A program made the translations under genes and the position numbers. From positions 1-23,719 of IMG/VR virus record IMGVR_UViG_2671180296_000011: a DNA stretch of 23,719 nt; one strand, written 5' to 3'. Of this stretch, positions 7,553 through 13,786 are shown in pieces. The stretch is from a virus (taxonomy: Duplodnaviria > Heunggongvirae > Uroviricota > Caudoviricetes). Numbering within the stretch: the first letter of the stretch is position 1; the number at the start of each line of letters is the position of its first letter. The notes beneath the pieces were generated by a model, which was not told the DNA's origin, searched no databases, and saw only the letters and a program-made list of their open reading frames with translations.

Positions 7553-8272
7553 TTAACGCACCCTGACAATGTTAATTTCAAAATCATCAATATGTCCGCT
7601 ATTAAGTATAACGAATTTCGTACTCCCACTTCTGTACGATTTTGATAACACAAGACGATCATCATAGCGTGCAAGAACGTAATACCAGACATTATCATAG
7701 TGGATCGACTGATATTCCCTCTTAAACTGGGGTTTGTACCAACCGGCAATAAGAGAGAATGTCCAGAAATAAATCATGAATCCAGCCATCATGAACTCAA
7801 TTCGGTGATGGCGAATAAAAGATACTTCCGAAAAGCATTTGACTGAAATAAGTTTTCTTCCTGACCTGACAAAAAGCGTAATTATAAAGACAGCAATAAC
7901 ACAAAAAATAAGCACATCTGGCTCAACGTACTGATGAATGACCGAAAATTCCAGAACAGGTGGAATAAAAAGCAGCAATATTGCCAGAAAAAGTCTGATA
8001 AAACTCAAATTCTGTATATTGTTTTTTTGTTTTATGCCTAAAAAGAAAACAATACCAACACCCCATCCAGTAAGGAATATAACGATAACGGTCACAGCAT
8101 AAAACAAACTTCGGGCCACATCATCAACGCCAGCTCCGACAACCCACCATGGAAAGCCATAGTAAAAGGAAGTACCCCATCCATAGAAATAAGCGCTTCC
8201 CCATCCAAGACAGCCCATATAAGCAATAAAAAGTGAAGAGTTCCTCAGTAGAGTACTGTCATCCATACCCAT
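7553..8272 (-). CDS. hypothetical polytopic membrane protein (239 aa) in AT-rich moron
   Basis: Long ORF in strongly AT-rich DNA. Aromatic/Gly-rich hydrophobic segments (YFYGWGTSFYYGFPWWVVGAG, VTVIVIFLTGWGVGIVFFLGI, LFLAILLLFIPPVL, LIFCVIAVFIITLF, MMAGFMIYFWTFSLIAGW) and a ~60-aa C-terminal soluble tail. Confidence 0.5.
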   Translation of the reverse strand: MGMDDSTLLRNSSLFIAYMGCLGWGSAYFYGWGTSFYYGFPWWVVGAGVDDVARSLFYAVTVIVIFLTGWGVGIVFFLGIKQKNNIQNLSFIRLFLAILLLFIPPVLEFSVIHQYVEPDVLIFCVIAVFIITLFVRSGRKLISVKCFSEVSFIRHHRIEFMMAGFMIYFWTFSLIAGWYKPQFKREYQSIHYDNVWYYVLARYDDRLVLSKSYRSGSTKFVILNSGHIDDFEINIVRVR

Positions 8273-8407
8273 CTCTCTAACAATTTAAAAACATTGACTC
8301 ACCTTACATAACAAAGGAGATTCCATGCAGTCAAGAGACTTCAGAGCAGGAGAAACTCATTGCACAATCGCCATCACGTTTAACGTTATGCACCGCTTTC
8401 CAGATAT

Positions 8408-8436
8408 AAAAAACCCGCTCGATGGCGGGCTGTAAA
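8408..8436 (-). terminator. rho-independent terminator, tR'-like, downstream of candidate late promoter
   Basis: Minus-strand GCCCGC-CATCGA-GCGGGT stem followed by TTTTTTATAT. About 40-70 nt downstream of the candidate promoter. Confidence 0.55.
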
Positions 8437-8478
8437 AATCCTTCTAACGTCAGGCATAAAACGCCCATCGTTAGAGCA

Positions 8479-8506
8479 AATTTACCACAGATTCGGGAAA
8501 AATCAA
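8479..8506 (-). promoter_or_regulatory. candidate late promoter (pR'-like) just downstream of the Q-like gene
   Basis: Minus-strand TTGATT - 16 nt - TAAATT immediately after the Q-like stop. Position matches the lambda pR'-qut-tR' layout. Approximate coordinates. Confidence 0.35.
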
Positions 8507-8511
8507 CAACA

Positions 8512-9333
8512 CTATCGCGTTACCCTCTTTAACTGCCGCTCCGCCCATGCCTCTTCAATGTCAAACCGAACCACCAACGTATCGTAAAAGCGTTTCACTG
8601 ATTTTTTCCATGTATCAAGCGTGATAGCACTCGTCACTTTGCATATGGCATTAAATGCCTCCGTTGATGGCAGTCTTTCATAGCCACGACCGCCACAACG
8701 CCGGCAGTCCCTGATAACAGGCATACCCCGTTTTTCTGACTCTTCACGATGAATGGCAACACCACGCCCACGGCAGTCTTTACAGGCAGTGGAGATCTCT
8801 CCCTTCCCTTTACATTCAGGACAGGAAACTTTCACCACCTCCCGGATTTTTTTCCATTCTTCCCAATAAGACGGATACACGCCTTTTGTGCACTTTGCCC
8901 ATACTGGCGGCTTACCATCCGGATACTGAACCTTGTTTGTAAAAACTTCGCTTTCAATAAATTTTTCCCCACGGCAACAAGAACACTGCTTTTTACTCGC
9001 TGCACTGCGGGCATAATCCTCAAAAGCATACGAAGCCATAATGCGCATCACTGCCGGTTTTATTTCTGCCGGAAGTTTTCTTAACGCCGCCACGCGATCG
9101 CACTGACTTAATGCATAATCTGCCAGTAATTCTGTTGCCCGCGCCCTGTCGTTCATACTAATGCCCATTTTCCCCAGGAACGCAGAAAATCCCATCTCAG
9201 CCCAGTTCTGTGTCATGCCCTGTGCAGCCATCACATCAGTGATACTCAGTGCATCTTTTGATGTCGAGGCGGATGCATCAGTCAGGCCTGGCGATTTCGG
9301 GGAATAGTATTTCGGTAAATCTTCCAGTTTCAT
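8512..9333 (-). CDS. putative late-gene antiterminator (Q position) with four DnaJ-type CxxCxGxG zinc-finger repeats
   Basis: 273 aa with CSCCRGEK, CPECKGKG, CKDCRGRG, CRRCGGRG. Start overlaps the rusA stop (ATGA). Sits between rusA and the pR'/tR'-like elements, as Q does in lambdoid phages. Confidence 0.5.
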   Translation of the reverse strand: MKLEDLPKYYSPKSPGLTDASASTSKDALSITDVMAAQGMTQNWAEMGFSAFLGKMGISMNDRARATELLADYALSQCDRVAALRKLPAEIKPAVMRIMASYAFEDYARSAASKKQCSCCRGEKFIESEVFTNKVQYPDGKPPVWAKCTKGVYPSYWEEWKKIREVVKVSCPECKGKGEISTACKDCRGRGVAIHREESEKRGMPVIRDCRRCGGRGYERLPSTEAFNAICKVTSAITLDTWKKSVKRFYDTLVVRFDIEEAWAERQLKRVTR

Positions 9334-9710
9334 TTTTGGACCTGCCCGTCATGCATTATTTCGTAAATCTTCACGCCCAGCCGACCACCAGGAACGACCT
9401 GACCTCGCACAATATTGATTTCATCAAACTGCTCGTCGTCGATAAGCAACCCCGCATGTGTCAGTGCATCCAGTGGTGCCTTCAGGATATTGTCCAGGTC
9501 ACGACGGCGCTTATCCGGCGGCTCTGCAATAATCTTTATCGCCAGCCTCCCGGACAGGTTTAATTTCAACCGCTGCTGGCGAACAATTAGTGCCACATCA
9601 CGGCGATAACGCTTTCCGGCCTCCGAGATGAAATACGTATTGCCATGACGTCGCCAGTAGGTATTCACCGTCGGCGGGTAAGGCAAAACAAATTCTATGC
9701 GTTCAGTCAT
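9330..9710 (-). CDS. rusA: RusA-family Holliday junction resolvase
   Basis: 126 aa: ...LPYPPTVNTYWRRHG...EAGKRYRRDVA...PPDKRRRDLDNILKAPLDALTHAGLLIDDEQ... matches RusA conserved acidic residues and motifs. Confidence 0.85.
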   Translation of the reverse strand: MTERIEFVLPYPPTVNTYWRRHGNTYFISEAGKRYRRDVALIVRQQRLKLNLSGRLAIKIIAEPPDKRRRDLDNILKAPLDALTHAGLLIDDEQFDEINIVRGQVVPGGRLGVKIYEIMHDGQVQK

Positions 9711-10766
9711 TCATGCTTTCCACTTCAGGACACCCGAATTTCTCGCGTGCATTAAAAAACGAATCAGCAACAACAGCTGGCTGCCGTGTTTTTCTTCAAA
9801 ATCTTTTACCCCGGCGTGCAGTTCGTTATGACATTTACGGCACAGCGGAATAACAAACAAATCATCAGCCTTTGTTCCCATCCCTCCCAGTCCATGACCA
9901 ATGATGTGATGCGGATCATCTGCCTGATTACCGCACGTCATGCATTTCTGCGTTTTTACCCAACGCGTGTATACAGGCATCTCTTCCCGTTGTGGTTTCT
10001 GGCGCTGGAGATATTGAGCCGGTGACTGCGGATCAACGGCAATGCTGACCACCGTCTTTTCCTGTGGCGGGTTTTGCTGGTGGGCGTGAGGCAGCGGCGC
10101 AAGATTTTTTGTGCGCTGCTTCAGTATGCTGGTGGCGGTCTGCTCTCCCGGTACGATGTCGCTTTCACGGTACATTGAGCGGATTTTTTCCGCACGCAAC
10201 CCCAGCGAACGACGTAATACCGCTTCCGGTAGCGCGTCCGCCACCTGATTGCGGACCGCCCACCAGGATAATTCAGCCAAAGATAATTCACGCTCCTGCG
10301 TACCGCTTATTGCGTGACCGATGACGTCAATCATCCATGCTGACAGGTTTTGATGAGCAAGTTGCTCGAGTGATTCGGATGTCTGGTCACGCAGCTGGTT
10401 GTCGCAGTGCCAGCACAACACCATTGCGCCGGTACCATAACGGTGAATGACGGTTTCGCTGTGATGATAATCGCCGTGTGGCCACTGGCAGGATTTAATA
10501 TGGCGCAACAGCCAGTCAGACAATGCACCAGCACCACCAGCAGCACGAATCACCCGTGCGTTACTGAAAAACGGCAGCAATGTTTTGTCTTCCACCAGCG
10601 GCTGGCGAACGGCAGGAACGACCCCGGACGGCAGATTACGCATGCTTTTCGGTTCCGGCTCCACCAATACCCGGGTATTGTGGAATACCGGCATGGATTC
10701 ACGGCCCGGCTTAACGATCACCAGCCCTAGTTCCGGTACCAGAACAGGTCGAAGTAATACCCGCAC
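9711..10766 (-). CDS. YdfU-like (DUF968-type) prophage protein with C-terminal HNH/zinc-binding-like motif
   Basis: 351 aa with C-terminal CMTCGNQADDPHHIIGHGLGGMGTKADDLFVIPLCRKCHNELH. Size and position match Qin YdfU as recalled. Confidence 0.55.
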   Translation of the reverse strand: MRVLLRPVLVPELGLVIVKPGRESMPVFHNTRVLVEPEPKSMRNLPSGVVPAVRQPLVEDKTLLPFFSNARVIRAAGGAGALSDWLLRHIKSCQWPHGDYHHSETVIHRYGTGAMVLCWHCDNQLRDQTSESLEQLAHQNLSAWMIDVIGHAISGTQERELSLAELSWWAVRNQVADALPEAVLRRSLGLRAEKIRSMYRESDIVPGEQTATSILKQRTKNLAPLPHAHQQNPPQEKTVVSIAVDPQSPAQYLQRQKPQREEMPVYTRWVKTQKCMTCGNQADDPHHIIGHGLGGMGTKADDLFVIPLCRKCHNELHAGVKDFEEKHGSQLLLLIRFLMHARNSGVLKWKA

Positions 10767-10767
10767 G

Positions 10768-11046
10768 TTACCTCCAGATGCGTTGCTGGAATGTGCGAGA
10801 CGGACGCGGTGGGCGCTCGGAGTACGGCAGCCTGACGTAGATTATCCAGAGACGATAATCGAGGCTGAGGGATTTCTTAATCTCGTATCCACGTCTGCGG
10901 TAGTTCTGAATCAGCCATTCGGCCTGTTCTTCAGTGCATGGATCATGCTGGAACCAGTCAGATTTGAATGTGAGAAAACGCCGCCCGTGCCTGCTGGCAA
11001 AGACGGCTGAATTATCAGAATTATGTAGTCTGGAATTTTGCGCCAT
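10768..11046 (-). CDS. hypothetical protein (92 aa), nin-region
   Basis: ORF tightly packed with the downstream gene (stop 10768, next start 10766). GGAGAAAG RBS. Confidence 0.4.
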   Translation of the reverse strand: MAQNSRLHNSDNSAVFASRHGRRFLTFKSDWFQHDPCTEEQAEWLIQNYRRRGYEIKKSLSLDYRLWIIYVRLPYSERPPRPSRTFQQRIWR

Positions 11047-11112
11047 CGGCTTTCTCCGCTGGCACAGTGTTACTCAACAGGGGTTCAGCCCTGCGCTGAA
11101 TTGTAGTTGAAT

Positions 11113-11376
11113 TCACTCATATTCAAAAGCAGAAAAACCAGCCTTAAGCTCAGCTTCTTTCAGAGACTGCAATGATGTGACAAATTCATTTTCACGCAAA
11201 ATAAAACCATCCGTCACAAATCCATCCACAAAATAAATTAACGCAGCTCCACTCTTCCCTTGTTGAGACTGTAAACATTTAATACGGCAGTGACTGACAA
11301 TAGAGCCATTCTCAACGCGCGCAGTGTAGAGGCCATCTTCACTAAAAATTTCACGTAATTCTTCGATTTTCATCAA
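11113..11376 (-). CDS. hypothetical protein (87 aa), nin-region
   Basis: ORF MMKIEELREIFSEDGLYTARVENG... with GGAAGGA RBS about 10 nt upstream. Confidence 0.4.
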   Translation of the reverse strand: MMKIEELREIFSEDGLYTARVENGSIVSHCRIKCLQSQQGKSGAALIYFVDGFVTDGFILRENEFVTSLQSLKEAELKAGFSAFEYE

Positions 11377-11532
11377 CAGAATCCTTCCAGATAAATAGCA
11401 CTCCCCTGTTCGGGGTCCATCCCTCTTCTCCCTGCGCGCTAACTAAGTAATATGATTCTATTTACCCCAAACGCCCCCTCAAGAACCGCAACCAATGGAG
11501 TACACAAAAAGCTAATCAGCTACGCTACGCAA

Positions 11533-11556
11533 TAAAAAACCCGCCGAAGCGGGTTA
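11533..11556 (-). terminator. rho-independent terminator downstream of hok (minus strand)
   Basis: Minus-strand AACCCGC-TTCG-GCGGGTT stem followed by TTTTTTATT. Confidence 0.55.
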
Positions 11557-11625
11557 AGTGCGGGCGCGTTGAGGATGCCTGACACATCAGAGGTGGCGAG
11601 GGATTTCTCCCTCGCCAGGTCACTC

Positions 11626-11781
11626 TTACTCCTCAGATTCGTAAGCTGTGAAGACAGCGACCTCCGTCTGGCCGGTTCGGATTCGCACCTCGCAGAGGTC
11701 TTTCCTCGTTACCAGTGCCGTCACTATGACGGTTAAACAGATGACGATCAGGGCGATTAGCATCGCCTTTTGCTGCTTCAT
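11626..11781 (-). CDS. hok: Hok-family type I toxin (51 aa)
   Basis: MKQQKAMLIALIVICLTVIVTALVTRKDLCEVRIRTGQTEVAVFTAYESEE has the Hok/Gef pattern (TM helix, conserved Cys, RxxxxEVAxFxAYES). The in-frame upstream extension in the ORF track is not part of Hok. Confidence 0.8.
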   Translation of the reverse strand: MKQQKAMLIALIVICLTVIVTALVTRKDLCEVRIRTGQTEVAVFTAYESEE

Positions 11782-12206
11782 AGCCTGCTTCTCCTTGCCT
11801 TTCGGCACGTAAGAGGCTAACCTACGTGTGTAGAGCATAGATATGGCCTCAGATTAATGTTAAGCGTCTTGCCGGACGCGTAATGTTAACTGGGGCTTTT
11901 CTCTGTCTGCCTTACGGCGGCATGCCCGAGGCAGACAGCCTCAAGCACCCGCAGCAATTCTACTTAACTATCCTTTTCCCGCAAATCGTTTCTATCATGT
12001 GCACCTTATGTCCCCGTCCTTTAGGACTCGGAGGAGGTCAAGTAACAATGACTTGATCAAGATATATACTATATGTATTCTAAAAAGAATTAATGCTTGT
12101 ACCGTTCAATATGGACTTTAACGTTGAATATTTCTCAAGCGCAAGGAATTTCAAATATATTTAAACCAGAATTACGTTTATACAGGATTAGATAAGGATT
12201 TCATCT

Positions 12207-12791
12207 ATGTACATGCACGGTAGTTTGTCAAATCGCTTAGATGTCATAATTCGAGATGGCAACAAAATGGCATTACTTGTTATTGATGAGCATGATGACG
12301 CAGTGTTACCTAAAAAATTCGAATCAGGTAACGTTATTGGGTCTCTTCTTCCGAAGTCTTCTTCAGTTACTGCGTACCAACAACGCTTGCTTATGTTTAT
12401 GCAACGAATGGAAATACCTGTGTGGTGTATCAAACAACGCTCTAACATGTATGGGCCACTTCGCGTCCAATTAAGAGGACTTTATAATGGAACACAAAAA
12501 ATGATTACCAAAACAGGATATAATGCCTTTAAAAATACCACATTACATTCAGATTTACAGAGTCAAGGTATAACTCATTTAGTTGCCATGGGATGGAACG
12601 CGAATGTATGCGTCGCTGCAACATTAGGCGTTTTCACTCCAAGAAATAAACTGGAAGATGAAAATCATGGTCCAGGAGCATTACAACTAGGATACAAAAT
12701 ATTATCAACAGGCGATATATTACATGGCAATGGTGTTATTTCATGGGCATACCACCCATCAAGGATGATTGAATTTTTTGAACGTTTTTGA
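12207..12791 (+). CDS. isochorismatase-family (cysteine hydrolase/nicotinamidase-like) protein in low-GC island
   Basis: 194 aa. MALLVIDEHDD resembles the N-terminal Asp motif and THLVAMGWNANVCVAATL the G-x-x-[TA]-N-x-C-V catalytic Cys motif. AAGGA RBS 8 nt upstream. Plus strand among minus-strand neighbours. Confidence 0.5.
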   Translation: MYMHGSLSNRLDVIIRDGNKMALLVIDEHDDAVLPKKFESGNVIGSLLPKSSSVTAYQQRLLMFMQRMEIPVWCIKQRSNMYGPLRVQLRGLYNGTQKMITKTGYNAFKNTTLHSDLQSQGITHLVAMGWNANVCVAATLGVFTPRNKLEDENHGPGALQLGYKILSTGDILHGNGVISWAYHPSRMIEFFERF

Positions 12792-13085
12792 TAAGAATCG
12801 TTGAATATTGGAGTTACTGAGATTAATAAAGAACATTTCGCCTCGCCATATTACTTTCCCAATTTTGCATCATCACTGACTTCAAATGCGTCTGCATGCA
12901 TTCCAAATTCAATACCCGTTTTTATTAGCCATTTCTGGCGGTCTCCTGATGTTTTGAGGGTCGAAAATCCATCCAGTTGGTAAACAGGCTCTACCGTTAA
13001 GGATTTAATAAAAATCACTTTTGATTTAAATTTTCAGTATTTTGTCATCTGTGCTCACTGTATTGCCCCCTGAAAAATCACCTCA

Positions 13086-13352
13086 TTACCCCAGTTTTTC
13101 TGCCAGTGCCAGCTCAGCCCTTGCACCTGCTGACTGGAACCAGTTTCGAAGCATGTAAACCGCATCCGCGCTACGGAGCATTTCCATGCAGATATCCATG
13201 TAGTGCGACTGAGTCAGTCCGTCCGGAAGAACTGCCGGGTTTAAAACGGTATGCCCTTCCCGTTTTAGCTCCTCTTCCGCCTTGTGAAACGCCTCGCGGT
13301 TGAAATTTTCATACCCGGTCATCGGACCGGCGATATAAACCCTCACCCTCAC
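13086..13352 (-). CDS. DUF4406-like (nucleoside 2-deoxyribosyltransferase-like) small protein
   Basis: 88 aa MRVRVYIAGPMTGYENFNREAFHKAEEELKREGHTVLNPA... The YIAGPMTG motif is characteristic of this family as recalled. Confidence 0.45.
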   Translation of the reverse strand: MRVRVYIAGPMTGYENFNREAFHKAEEELKREGHTVLNPAVLPDGLTQSHYMDICMEMLRSADAVYMLRNWFQSAGARAELALAEKLG

Positions 13353-13786
13353 TCCATCACCTCCTGAAAATTACCCCGATAGAACGCCAGCACTCGCTGC
13401 ATAACCTCACTCTTCCGGCACTCGCGACAGATTATGTTCTGTTGTCTGTCGTAGCGGCGTATTTCTCCATCAGGTAATATCCTGATAAGGTCCGGATCAA
13501 CCACAGCAGGTTTCTTCACCTTTACCCTCGATAGTTTTTTGCGGGCGTTTTGCCAGTCCTTACGAGCCTGTTCAGACGGGAATAACCCGTAGCCAGAGTT
13601 GTATAAATCGCCACTGGCAACCAGCTCTCTGGCAAGAACACTCATCAGATATCTTGTCGCACCTGTTTTCGCTTCCGGTTGCCGTAACGTCTCGCGCCCG
13701 CTCAGACGCACAAGTTCAACAACCTGTACCTTAATTTTTTCCCGCTCTTCTTGTGTAAATACTTTTGCCATAAGCGCCTCCGGCAA
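13349..13786 (-). CDS. hypothetical protein (145 aa), nin-region
   Basis: ORF overlapping the downstream gene by 4 nt. Contains CRECRK. No family recognised. Confidence 0.4.
   Translation of the reverse strand: MPEALMAKVFTQEEREKIKVQVVELVRLSGRETLRQPEAKTGATRYLMSVLARELVASGDLYNSGYGLFPSEQARKDWQNARKKLSRVKVKKPAVVDPDLIRILPDGEIRRYDRQQNIICRECRKSEVMQRVLAFYRGNFQEVME

Follow-up and report, generated by a model that had tools for sequence, protein, structure and literature searches.

The hok/sok locus (parB) of plasmid R1, the paradigm for the mechanism of such modules, contains tac, ucb, a target hairpin, the mok Shine-Dalgarno (SD) sequence, dcb, the hok SD, a 3' stem-loop, fbi and a terminator, all as in the locus described here, with the Sok promoter likewise positioned over dcb, an overlap that has been described previously (PMC9841398). 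In R1, toxicity is lost when mutations weaken the final stem-loop of the truncated mRNA (PMC9841398), and the YUNR U-turn motif is decisive for the fast binding of Sok (PMC6562991). A phage-borne relative, hokW-mokW-sokW, is found in the Stx2 phage 933W and the Sakai prophage Sp5 (AF125520; PMC8621323). HokW is 44% identical to R1 Hok (PMC8621323), and both HokW and HokD of Escherichia coli K-12 have been reported to be toxic (PMC8621323; bioRxiv 10.1101/2025.08.07.668861). In Sp5, mutation of the sokW promoter abolished the antitoxin activity (PMC8621323).

We analyzed a locus in a 23,719-nucleotide stretch of DNA from a virus of the class Caudoviricetes (IMG/VR record IMGVR_UViG_2671180296_000011; the entire stretch is hereafter referred to as the window), which shows 92.2% DNA identity to hokW-mokW-sokW over positions 11552-11996. 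This locus is, with high probability, a complete, sequence-intact hok/mok/sok type I toxin-antitoxin module of the hokD/hokW lineage, for which a mechanism on the R1 model is proposed. It belongs to a lambdoid prophage of the Qin/Rac-like type, within the early-right (nin-like) region. Modules of this kind are already well known, and this is an ordinary copy that implies no new biology.

The hok and mok reading frames and their surroundings

The initial annotation described the hok locus as stand-alone and its leader as structured, and both points hold, the toxin gene being recognized by Pfam HOK_GEF (E=2.9e-23) and the leader by Rfam RF01794 (116.3 bits). The toxin gene can now be assigned to the minus strand, with an in-frame mok frame, as follows:

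11531-11984, minus strand (Sok gene on the plus strand): hok/mok/sok module
11626-11781, minus strand: hok coding sequence, 51 amino acids, MKQQKAMLIALIVICLTVIVTALVTRKDLCEVRIRTGQTEVAVFTAYESEE
11796-11791, minus strand: hok SD, AAGGAG
11626-11838, minus strand: mok open reading frame, 70 amino acids, in the frame of hok, with which it has the stop codon in common
11836-11850, minus strand: mok translation initiation region, with SD GAGG at 11850-11847 and AUG at 11838-11836
11640-11643, minus strand: TACG motif in the hok Tyr47 codon, a potential TadA A-to-I editing site (Tyr to Cys)

The match of the Hok frame to PF01848 scores 81.6 bits against a cut-off of 22, and the same frame matches PHROG 251, "MokW-like host killing" (E=6.4e-33). 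The toxin is identical to K-12 HokD at 50 of 51 residues and to HokW of phage 933W at 48 of 51. The mok frame has the same length and the same register relative to hok as the annotated mokW (213 nt) and mokC, and its SD, 8 nt upstream of the mok AUG, is laid out as in mokW (933W) and mokC (K-12). The source assembly (NCBI GCA_001264195.1), traced through an exact protein match, annotates the same 70-residue mok product, with a PF01848 match, and its contig LFZI01000022.1 carries the hok locus and positions 7700-13700 of the window without any difference. A search of the GTDB species-representative genomes for an exact 50-nt pattern gave no match. On the R1 model, hok is proposed to be translated through mok by coupling. 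The TACG motif at Tyr47 is unchanged in 11 homologues, and editing of about 6% has been reported for the corresponding Tyr codon of K-12 hokD (PMC5630033, PMC12214031).

The locus occupies the interval from the replication region to rem-ydfU-rusA-Q and has their orientation, a layout that recurs in E. coli ES5 and phage Rac 442/2. The genes initially described as nin genes are functional equivalents, namely, a rem-like gene, a DUF968 (ydfU-like) gene, RusA and antiterminator Q. The reported lack of relBE was borne out by a tblastn search of the whole window with K-12 RelB and RelE (best E=0.73), and Pfam and NCBIfam scans of the open reading frames called around the locus found no relBE. Several plus-strand open reading frames overlap the leader or the rest of the locus (11883-12056, 57 amino acids; 11999-12121, 40 amino acids; 11569-11736; 11648-11812) and were treated as chance frames.

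Elements of the hok mRNA and their predicted folding

The match of the leader to RF01794 spans the full length of the model (positions 1-157 of 157, covering the tac stem, the target hairpin and the SD/dcb stem), runs from 11950 to 11776 on the minus strand and scores 116.3 bits against a gathering score of 59 (E=3.3e-26). The start of the model coincides exactly with G11950, the inferred hok transcription start. With the definitions of ucb and related elements taken from PMC9841398, the following features were assigned:

11957-11984, minus strand: putative hok promoter, -35 TTGCGG (11984-11979), 16-nt spacer, -10 TAGAAT (11962-11957)
11533-11950, minus strand: predicted full-length hok mRNA of about 418 nt, extending from the first position of the Rfam model to the intrinsic terminator
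11939-11950, minus strand: tac (translational activator element), mRNA nt 1-12, GGGUGCUUGAGG
11903-11938, minus strand: 5' hairpin, nt 13-22 paired with nt 39-48, the upper part of the tac stem
11892-11898, minus strand: ucb (anti-SD box), mRNA nt 53-59, AAGCCCC
11813-11817, minus strand: dcb (downstream complementary box), GCCUC, from the Rfam structure alignment
11594-11617, minus strand: 3' stem-loop with a perfect 10-bp stem (11594-11603/11608-11617)
11562-11574, minus strand: fbi (fold-back inhibitory element), mRNA nt 377-389, CCUCAACGCGCCC
11531-11555 (hairpin 11538-11555), minus strand: intrinsic terminator, AACCCGC-TTCG-GCGGGTT followed by TTTTTATT (T-run)

The -10 and +1 regions of hok are the same as those of 933W hokW, with two substitutions in the approximately 35 nt upstream of the -10 element. 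A scan with a generic sigma-70 consensus listed neither the hok promoter, because of its weak -35 element, nor the sok promoter described below, both being missed because of weak matches at -35 or -10. The scan did list a minus-strand site within the target hairpin (11863-11834, TTAACA-18-TATGCT), which we regard as a chance match in a sequence conserved for RNA structure. The terminator is the only terminator-like site detected in 11400-12250, and it is common to K-12 hokD and other Qin/Rac-type copies.

The surroundings of the promoter also bear on the idea that hok is mainly a passenger of the early-right transcript, such that read-through during induction would produce hok RNA and at the same time silence the convergent sok promoter, with the tac/fbi pairing being secondary. 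The replication, DUF977, DUF4406, rem, ydfU, rusA and Q genes all lie on the strand of hok, and a crude terminator scan found no terminator-like site on either strand in 11950-13400. Moreover, RecA-dependent induction of Sp5 is followed by disappearance of the sokW RNA and appearance of HokW, the cause of which was left unexplained (PMC8621323). However, in 933W/Sp5, the module is located elsewhere, near attR and in a different neighborhood, and its activation still depends on induction. Furthermore, the block of homology that defines the module begins about 45 nt upstream of +1, and therefore the module carries its own -10 and +1, and a low-GC gene in the opposite orientation separates the early genes from hok. 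On balance, we consider the passenger reading distinctly unlikely and favor transcription of hok from its own promoter.

A 10-bp inverted repeat noted upstream of hok in the initial annotation is indeed present and perfect, with the arms CTGTCTGCCT and AGGCAGACAG at 11903-11912 and 11929-11938; among 1000 shuffles of a 561-bp region, a perfect 10-bp repeat with a loop of 3 to 40 nt appeared in 12. This repeat forms the 5' hairpin, two of whose pairs have undergone compensatory changes of both bases in the homologues (A-U/G-C and C-G/U-A). A role as a protein operator or a terminator was considered for this repeat and rejected given its position as the upper tac-stem hairpin and the compensatory changes. 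The two downstream hairpins that had been reported are likewise present, although their reading changes: they are the 3' stem-loop and the transcription terminator of the hok mRNA, with fbi located between them. Each of these three structures corresponds to a defined part of the program by which the hok mRNA folds, and none is a generic terminator or operator. The 3' stem-loop shows a compensatory series at one pair (A-U, G-U and G-C) among homologues and, by analogy with R1, is predicted to protect the 3' end of the processed hok mRNA.

The minimum free energy (MFE) structure of the full-length 418-nt RNA (-178.4 kcal/mol) is closed from 5' to 3' end, with tac (nt 1-12) and fbi (nt 377-389) predicted to form 12 pairs and with ucb (G55-C57) paired to the mok SD (G103-C105). 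When 45 or 60 nt were removed from the 3' end, tac nt 1-8 were predicted to switch to ucb (A53-C59). The MFE switch is not clean at every truncation length tried: removal of 36-40 nt yielded an alternative 3' pairing, and removal of 50 nt yielded the 5' hairpin. In the processed mRNA, dcb pairs with the mok SD (GAGGC), and this SD/dcb stem-loop is predicted in all 11 homologues; on the opposite strand, dcb overlaps the -10 region of sok. Folded alone, nt 1-175 are predicted to form a 5' hairpin with tac paired to the sequence immediately downstream of it, a structure resembling the described metastable nascent structure. Applied to an R1-type control locus, the same procedure recovered tac/fbi and then the pairs G4-C72, C5-G71 and U6-A70, which are those reported experimentally for R1 (PMC9841398).

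Conservation was assessed across 11 loci of the hokD/hokW type that are 87-97% identical. The tac sequence is invariant in these 11 homologues, and in those 10 that still have fbi, pairing of the tac/fbi helix is complete (100%), an agreement inflated by the close relatedness of the set and by the derivation of the tested structure from the window itself. The helix of the window carries a U4-G wobble at a position where the other homologues have U-A. In pHFQ1, an IS421 element truncates the locus within the 3' stem-loop, directly beyond its 5' half, so that fbi is lost.

The predicted Sok antisense RNA and its promoter

In the initial annotation, the antisense RNA could not be placed. The position of Sok and its promoter can now be predicted through homology to sokW of 933W, from the annotation of which (L001 3277-3347) the Sok ends were transferred:

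11795-11823, plus strand: sok promoter, -35 TTGCCT (11795-11800), 17-nt spacer, -10 TAACCT (11818-11823)
11830-11900, plus strand: predicted Sok antisense RNA, about 71 nt, with ends taken from the 933W sokW annotation

The promoter, from -35 through -10, is identical, base for base, to the region upstream of the annotated sokW. The predicted Sok RNA matches sokW at 65 of 71 nt, with all six differences located in the first 16 nt. It is complementary to nt 51-121 of the hok mRNA, including ucb, the target hairpin, the mok SD and the mok AUG, and its 5' end lies 9 nt inside mok, the same geometry as in K-12 sokC. In the predicted fold (-29.4 kcal/mol, z=-4.3), a single-stranded 5' tail precedes a long hairpin, and the end is rich in U; none of 200 shuffled sequences was as stable. 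Judging from these features, a cis-encoded antisense Sok with a promoter of its own appears to cover the mok initiation region. The Rfam "sok" match was considered as a candidate for the Sok gene and rejected, being on the hok-sense strand and ending at the hok AUG. The Rfam comparison proposed for this locus thus matches the leader in the hok sense and, because RF01794 models the hok-sense leader, the match gives neither the strand of the antitoxin nor its ends.

The predicted Sok-target loop of the window hok mRNA, CUCUACACA, contains no YUNR U-turn motif. YUNR is present in eight of the 11 relatives and is also missing from GPT24 and phage 689R5. This allele is common: the exact 60-nt form of the window, taking in the greater part of the sok promoter together with the Sok 5' end and the target loop, was matched at no less than 99% identity in 540 complete E. 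coli records. Strains with the identical allele include E. coli O157:H7 TR01 and E2865.

For every element of the module, presence, integrity, conservation and predicted folding were established in this analysis. The tac, fbi, ucb and dcb elements, the mok SD and the mok frame were all found, and the locus is uninterrupted, with neither an IS element nor a rearrangement. Absent or disrupted leader elements would have pointed to an inactive relic; tac, fbi, ucb, dcb and the sok promoter are all undisrupted, and therefore such a relic is not what is observed. A subtler form of decay would be a locus that looks complete but is unexpressed or does not kill, and persists only by hitch-hiking with the prophage. 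This has been proposed for several chromosomal hok loci, and bioRxiv 10.1101/2025.08.07.668861 cites earlier tests of chromosomal hokA, hokB and hokC without post-segregational killing or activation by rifampicin. The weak hok -35 element (TTGCGG), along with the absence of this promoter from the scan list, and the target loop lacking YUNR would also fit silence. Conversely, all the regulatory elements are intact, with pairings kept by compensatory changes across different prophage and plasmid backgrounds, and IS insertions or rearrangements of the kind found at K-12 loci and in pHFQ1 are lacking. Furthermore, the closest tested relative, hokW-sokW, at 92% DNA identity, is functional and expressed from its native locus (PMC8621323), and a single residue separates the window toxin from the toxic HokD. 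Silence of the locus is considered very unlikely.

Proposed mechanism, prevalence and relation to known loci

Transcription of an unstable Sok RNA, toxicity of Hok and killing upon loss of Sok have been shown for the relatives hokW-sokW (PMC8621323) and R1. On the R1 model, we infer the transcript ends, processing, toxicity and Sok activity of the window copy, which would operate as follows. The weak promoter (-10 TAGAAT) would yield the hok mRNA of about 418 nt from G11950, in which the 5' tac and the 3' fbi would be paired and ucb would hide the mok SD, such that the full-length RNA would be neither translated nor bound by Sok. Slow 3' trimming to the stable stem-loop at 11594-11617 would remove fbi, whereupon tac would pair with ucb and the mok SD would enter the SD/dcb stem-loop, making mok translatable and hok as well, via coupling. 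The short, unstable Sok, transcribed from TTGCCT-17-TAACCT on the plus strand (approximately 11830-11900), would anneal to the processed mRNA across the mok initiation region, so as to block it and set off decay. Once the supply of Sok stops, the stored hok mRNA would give rise to the 51-residue membrane toxin.

Drawing on the closest tested relative, hokW-sokW, the role of the module is most likely to aid host lysis and phage release upon induction and/or to penalize prophage loss. Alternatively, a functional module might mainly serve abortive infection, that is, exclusion of superinfecting lytic phages, rather than prophage maintenance or lysis. R1 hok/sok on a high-copy plasmid lowered the plating efficiency and plaque size of T4, according to the citation of this work in PMC8621323, and hok genes are about four-fold enriched in prophages, for which defense has been suggested (bioRxiv 10.1101/2025.08.07.668861). 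However, hok is not enriched near defense systems (bioRxiv 10.1101/2025.08.07.668861), no PADLOC model matches Hok or its neighbors here, and the only tested prophage homologue promoted phage release and did not block phages (PMC8621323). Exclusion as the main function thus appears unlikely, and a contribution to lysis or prophage maintenance remains our preferred reading. Given the loss of YUNR and an early-right transcript path without a detectable upstream terminator, induction might switch on Hok in that convergent read-through would turn off the sok promoter, while a slower pairing of Sok would adjust the delay; editing at the retained TACG site (Tyr47 to Cys) could place a further growth-phase gate on toxicity. 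This is a long shot; if true, it would specify how SokW is lost upon RecA-dependent induction of Sp5, which was left unexplained.

Full-length, leader-containing loci were identified in 2590 of the 5426 complete E. coli genomes, and the K-12-type relE-hokD junction in 1167, so that the intact form is more than twice as frequent as the K-12 arrangement. At these loci, PGAP gives a name to the toxin alone ("hokD" or "Hok/Gef family protein"), with no annotation of mok or sok, and the practical value of the present assignment lies in annotation.

The positional counterpart of the locus is K-12 hokD (relF) in Qin, with Rem and YdfU/DUF968 encoded downstream at 70% and 80% amino acid identity, respectively. 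The K-12 3' UTR (3' stem-loop, fbi and terminator) is homologous to that of the window, whereas upstream the homology runs only a few nucleotides past the hok SD and ends about 15-20 nt from the hok ATG. As stated in the initial annotation, hokD adjoins relBE in Qin: relE-relB occupy the place where the window, which lacks relBE, has the promoter, tac, ucb, mok and sok. K-12 hokD is leaderless and RF01794 finds nothing there, whereas the leader of the window is full. The window copy shows the form of the K-12 hokD/relF remnant before relBE replaced the leader.

K-12 hokC/mokC/sokC (gef) is about 76% identical in DNA over 364 nt, with 42 of 50 Hok residues identical and with mokC in frame with hokC, as mok is with hok in the window. 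In K-12, IS186 lies directly downstream of the hokC reading frame, in contrast to the uninterrupted 3' UTR of the window. RF01794 matches the hok-sense strand at K-12 hokC/sokC and 933W hokW/sokW too, and does so, with 87 bits, at an R1-type plasmid locus.

The R1 module, which is carried by a plasmid rather than by a prophage, undergoes the same conformational switch in silico, although the Hok protein of the window is only distantly similar to that of R1, the target loop of the window lacks YUNR, and a 16-nt insertion relative to the Rfam consensus lengthens the Sok/target hairpin.

The hokW-mokW-sokW module of 933W differs in place, being near attR, whereas that of the window lies between the replication genes and rem, ydfU, rusA and Q. 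Downstream of fbi, the window has a canonical terminator hairpin where 933W diverges. The loop CUGAACA of 933W corresponds to CUCUACACA in the window, and six substitutions in the Sok 5' tail and the target loop remove YUNR. Nevertheless, the two modules share the same order of elements, and folding predicts the same switch from tac/fbi to tac/ucb in both.

Toxin gene and structured leader

The Hok toxin gene reported in the initial annotation is present on the minus strand, together with a longer reading frame:

11626-11781 (-): hok CDS, 51 aa
start 11838 (-): mok ORF, 70 aa, in frame with hok

The 70-aa product matches Pfam HOK_GEF (E=2.9e-23), and the 51-aa product matches PHROG 251, “MokW-like host killing” (E=6.4e-33). 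The toxin ORF differs from HokD by one residue and from HokW by three, and toxicity has been reported for both HokD (bioRxiv 10.1101/2025.08.07.668861) and HokW (PMC8621323). The TadA recognition motif TACG is located at the hok Tyr47 codon (11640-11643 (-)) and is invariant in 11 related hokD/hokW-type loci; the equivalent Tyr codon of K-12 hokD is reported to undergo low-level A-to-I editing that changes Tyr to Cys (PMC5630033, PMC12214031).

The structured leader postulated upstream of hok was confirmed by an Rfam search, which yielded a full-length match to RF01794 (“sok”) at 11950..11776 (-), with a score of 116.3 bits (E=3.3e-26) against a gathering score of 59 bits. The match is on the hok strand and ends at the hok AUG. 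When the strand relation of this family was checked at loci with explicit sok annotation, the matches at K-12 hokC/sokC (L006 1602-1754) and phage 933W hokW/sokW (L001 3223-3397) were both found on the hok-sense strand, opposite the annotated sok, and therefore the model describes the 5' leader of the hok mRNA, covering the tac stem, the Sok-target hairpin, the SD/dcb stem and the hok SD hairpin. Thus, although the family is named “sok antitoxin”, the match marks the hok leader rather than the antitoxin gene, and proves the presence of a hok/sok leader without locating Sok. Equating the match with the Sok gene itself is ruled out by its hok-sense strand and its end at the hok AUG.

The inverted repeat noted in this region is real and perfect over 10 bp (arms 11903-11912 and 11929-11938); when the 561-bp region was shuffled 1000 times, any such repeat with a 3-40 nt loop arose in only 12 cases. 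The target hairpin also contains a promoter-like sequence in hok orientation, TTAACA-18-TATGCT (9/12) at 11834-11863 (-); the resemblance is probably fortuitous, the sequence there being under structural constraint.

Predicted position of sok and the target loop

The tac, fbi, ucb and sok promoter elements of characterised hok/sok loci are all present. The locus shares 92.2% identity with phage 933W across 11552-11996, and mokW, hokW and sokW are all annotated in the 933W record. The initial annotation had not identified sok and could not place its promoter with confidence; the gene can be placed by homology on the plus strand:

11830-11900 (+): predicted Sok RNA, 71 nt, sokW coordinates transferred
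11795-11800 and 11818-11823 (+): sok promoter by homology to sokW, -35 TTGCCT and -10 TAACCT, 17-nt spacer

From -35 through -10, the sequence upstream of the predicted Sok is identical to that of 933W base for base, and the predicted Sok differs from SokW in 6 of the 71 positions, all within the first 16 nt. Its 5' end is 9 nt inside mok, a geometry common to sokW/mokW and K-12 sokC/mokC. In the predicted fold (-29.4 kcal/mol; z=-4.3, none of the 200 shuffles being as stable), the 5' tail is single-stranded and leads into a long hairpin, which is followed by a U-rich end. Being encoded in cis, Sok would be a perfect complement of hok mRNA nt 51-121, that is, ucb, the target hairpin, the mok SD and the mok AUG. 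In Sp5/933W, HokW is toxic and is neutralised by sokW expressed from its own promoter (Takada et al., PMC8621323); promoter mutations abolish this neutralisation, and both hokW and sokW RNAs are detectable from the native locus by northern blot (PMC8621323). The location of sok is settled by homology, and the initial reading of the locus is supported.

Relative to the Rfam consensus, a 16-nt insertion, cgcguccggcaagacg, is present in the target/Sok hairpin, 11851-11891 (-). It forms a G+C-rich stem extension, is found in all 11 hokD/hokW-type loci, and brings the predicted Sok to 71 nt, compared with the 59 nt annotated for K-12 sokC.

The YUNR U-turn motif, which in R1 is decisive for rapid Sok binding (PMC6562991), is missing from the predicted Sok-target loop, CUCUACACA (11827-11835 (-), hok mRNA nt 116-124). 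Eight of the 11 relatives contain it, among them 933W (CUGAACA); GPT24 shares the target-loop allele of the window, and phage 689R5 also lacks YUNR. The exact 60-nt window sequence that contains the target loop, the 5' end of Sok and the greater part of its promoter was found at ≥99% identity in 540 complete E. coli records, including O157:H7 strains, with no feature annotated beneath its matches. Because this allele is common, the loss of YUNR is probably tolerated. In the E. coli RefSeq hits H96-H103 and in L002, L007, L008 and L011, the only PGAP feature at such loci is the 51-aa toxin, named “hokD” or “Hok/Gef family protein”, mok and sok being left unannotated.

Predicted folding of the hok mRNA and its conservation

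Element definitions were taken from PMC9841398, and the transcript was assigned the following start:

11962-11957 (-): putative hok promoter -10, TAGAAT, with +1 at G11950, 7 nt downstream

The predicted full-length RNA, from +1 to the terminator, is 418 nt long (MFE -178.4 kcal/mol). In this fold, tac (nt 1-12, GGGUGCUUGAGG) pairs with fbi (nt 377-389, CCUCAACGCGCCC, 11574-11562), and ucb G55-C57 with mok SD G103-C105. When the 3' end is shortened by 45 or 60 nt, nt 1-8 are predicted to move onto ucb A53-C59, giving the tac stem, the upper part of which is the 10-bp inverted repeat. For 3' truncations of 36-40 nt and 50 nt, other folds were predicted, so that certain lengths do not show a clean switch. 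Folded alone, nt 1-175 are predicted to form a 5' hairpin through pairing of tac with the immediately downstream sequence, matching the described metastable nascent structure. As a positive control, an R1-type plasmid locus analysed by the same procedure gave tac/fbi pairing in the full-length RNA and, less 45-55 nt, the pairs G4-C72, C5-G71 and U6-A70, exactly those supported by mutagenesis (PMC9841398).

Both hairpins described downstream of hok are present, one a perfect 10-bp stem (11594-11617), the other an intrinsic terminator (11538-11555) followed by a T-run, and the predicted folding programme assigns them distinct roles. The distal hairpin is the terminator, the proximal stem-loop would be where 3' trimming halts and would shield the processed hok RNA, and fbi is located between the two.

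The 11 aligned hokD/hokW-type loci come from different prophages and plasmids (87-97% identity) and are collinear from +1 to fbi. On the window full-length structure, 93.4% of cells are standard pairs, compared with 33-42% after displacement of the partners by 1-3 columns, an agreement favoured by the close relatedness of the sequences and by derivation of the structure from the window itself. Pairing in the tac/fbi helix is 100% for the 10 sequences still containing fbi, and all 11 loci are predicted to form the SD/dcb stem-loop (GAGGC with GCCUC, 11817-11813). Compensatory double changes are found in the 5' hairpin (A-U 7 / G-C 3 / G-U 1; C-G 8 / U-A 3), and one pair of the 3' stem-loop forms the series A-U 3 / G-C 3 / G-U 3.

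In the hokD-type copy on plasmid pHFQ1 (NZ_AP023428.1, about 300-330), the 3' stem-loop retains only its 5' half, the rest of the locus, with fbi and the terminator, having been cut off by IS421 (IS186-family). The lesion is of the same kind as in K-12 hokC, where IS186 adjoins the reading frame; the window locus has no such IS lesion.

Prophage context, probable activity and comparison with K-12 hokD

Over the two stretches compared, the hok locus and 7700-13700, the window is identical to contig LFZI01000022.1 of NCBI assembly GCA_001264195.1. It represents part of a lambdoid prophage of the Qin/Rac-like type, with the following features:

22424-23719: integrase
18914-18965 (+): DicF RNA, 73.8 bits
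16898-17305: DicA-type repressor
in the window: exonuclease-domain protein
in the window: replication genes and DUF1627, DUF977 and DUF4406 genes
12207-12791 (+): isochorismatase/cysteine-hydrolase-like ORF, 194 aa, PF00857, E=1.4e-9
10768-11046 (-): 92-aa ORF between the rem-like and ydfU-like genes, PHROG 1212, unknown function
5856-5931 (-): tRNA-Met(cat)
5678-5754 (-): tRNA-Arg(tct)
4648-4846 (-): STnc100, 148.7 bits

The 194-aa ORF, oriented opposite to hok and without a PHROG or PADLOC match, belongs to a low-GC insert (12000-13080; 0.34-0.40 vs about 0.5 in the flanks) that looks like a moron, and E. coli ES5 has the same hok and cysteine-hydrolase neighbourhood. After the insert come hok/sok and rem, then the 92-aa ORF, in a position where no gene is annotated in K-12 Qin, and further on ydfU, rusA, Q, a DNA methylase, the two tRNAs and STnc100.

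An inactive relic, with leader elements absent or disrupted, is argued against by the presence of both promoters, both SDs, mok and all pairing partners, and, as far as the sequence goes, nothing in the locus is broken. We consider it very probable that the hok/mok/sok module is intact and that Sok lies at about 11830-11900, and likely that the locus would function as a toxin-antitoxin pair; caution is advised by earlier work, cited in bioRxiv 10.1101/2025.08.07.668861, in which some chromosomal hok loci failed functional tests. The nearest tested relative, hokW-sokW, contributes to host lysis and, on mitomycin C induction, raises phage release twofold, with RecA-dependent loss of Sok and production of HokW (PMC8621323). 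Instead of aiding lysis, the module might serve in maintaining the prophage or in excluding other phages. In 11950-13400, between the early genes (DUF4406, DUF977) and the hok promoter, neither strand yielded a terminator-like site, so early-right read-through across hok/sok during induction is conceivable and, speculatively, could disturb the sok promoter, which is convergent.

The window hok occupies the same prophage slot as K-12 hokD, and the genes downstream of it encode homologues of Rem (70% identity) and YdfU/DUF968 (80%), then RusA and antiterminator Q. As initially stated, relBE is absent (tblastn of K-12 RelB/RelE against the whole window, best E=0.73). K-12 hokD and the window copy have homologous 3' UTRs, stem-loop, fbi and terminator included, whereas upstream the homology ends in K-12 a few nt before the hok SD, relE-relB replacing the leader; a search of the K-12 Qin hokD region with RF01794 gave no match. 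Given that K-12 is without the leader and the window retains it in full, the window carries the intact form of the K-12 remnant. Among 5426 complete E. coli genomes, the full locus was found in 2590 (counting leader-containing loci that span 80% or more of the 561-bp query) and the K-12-type relE-hokD junction in 1167. The locus is a known kind of element, close to annotated, characterised loci and very common in E. coli prophages.
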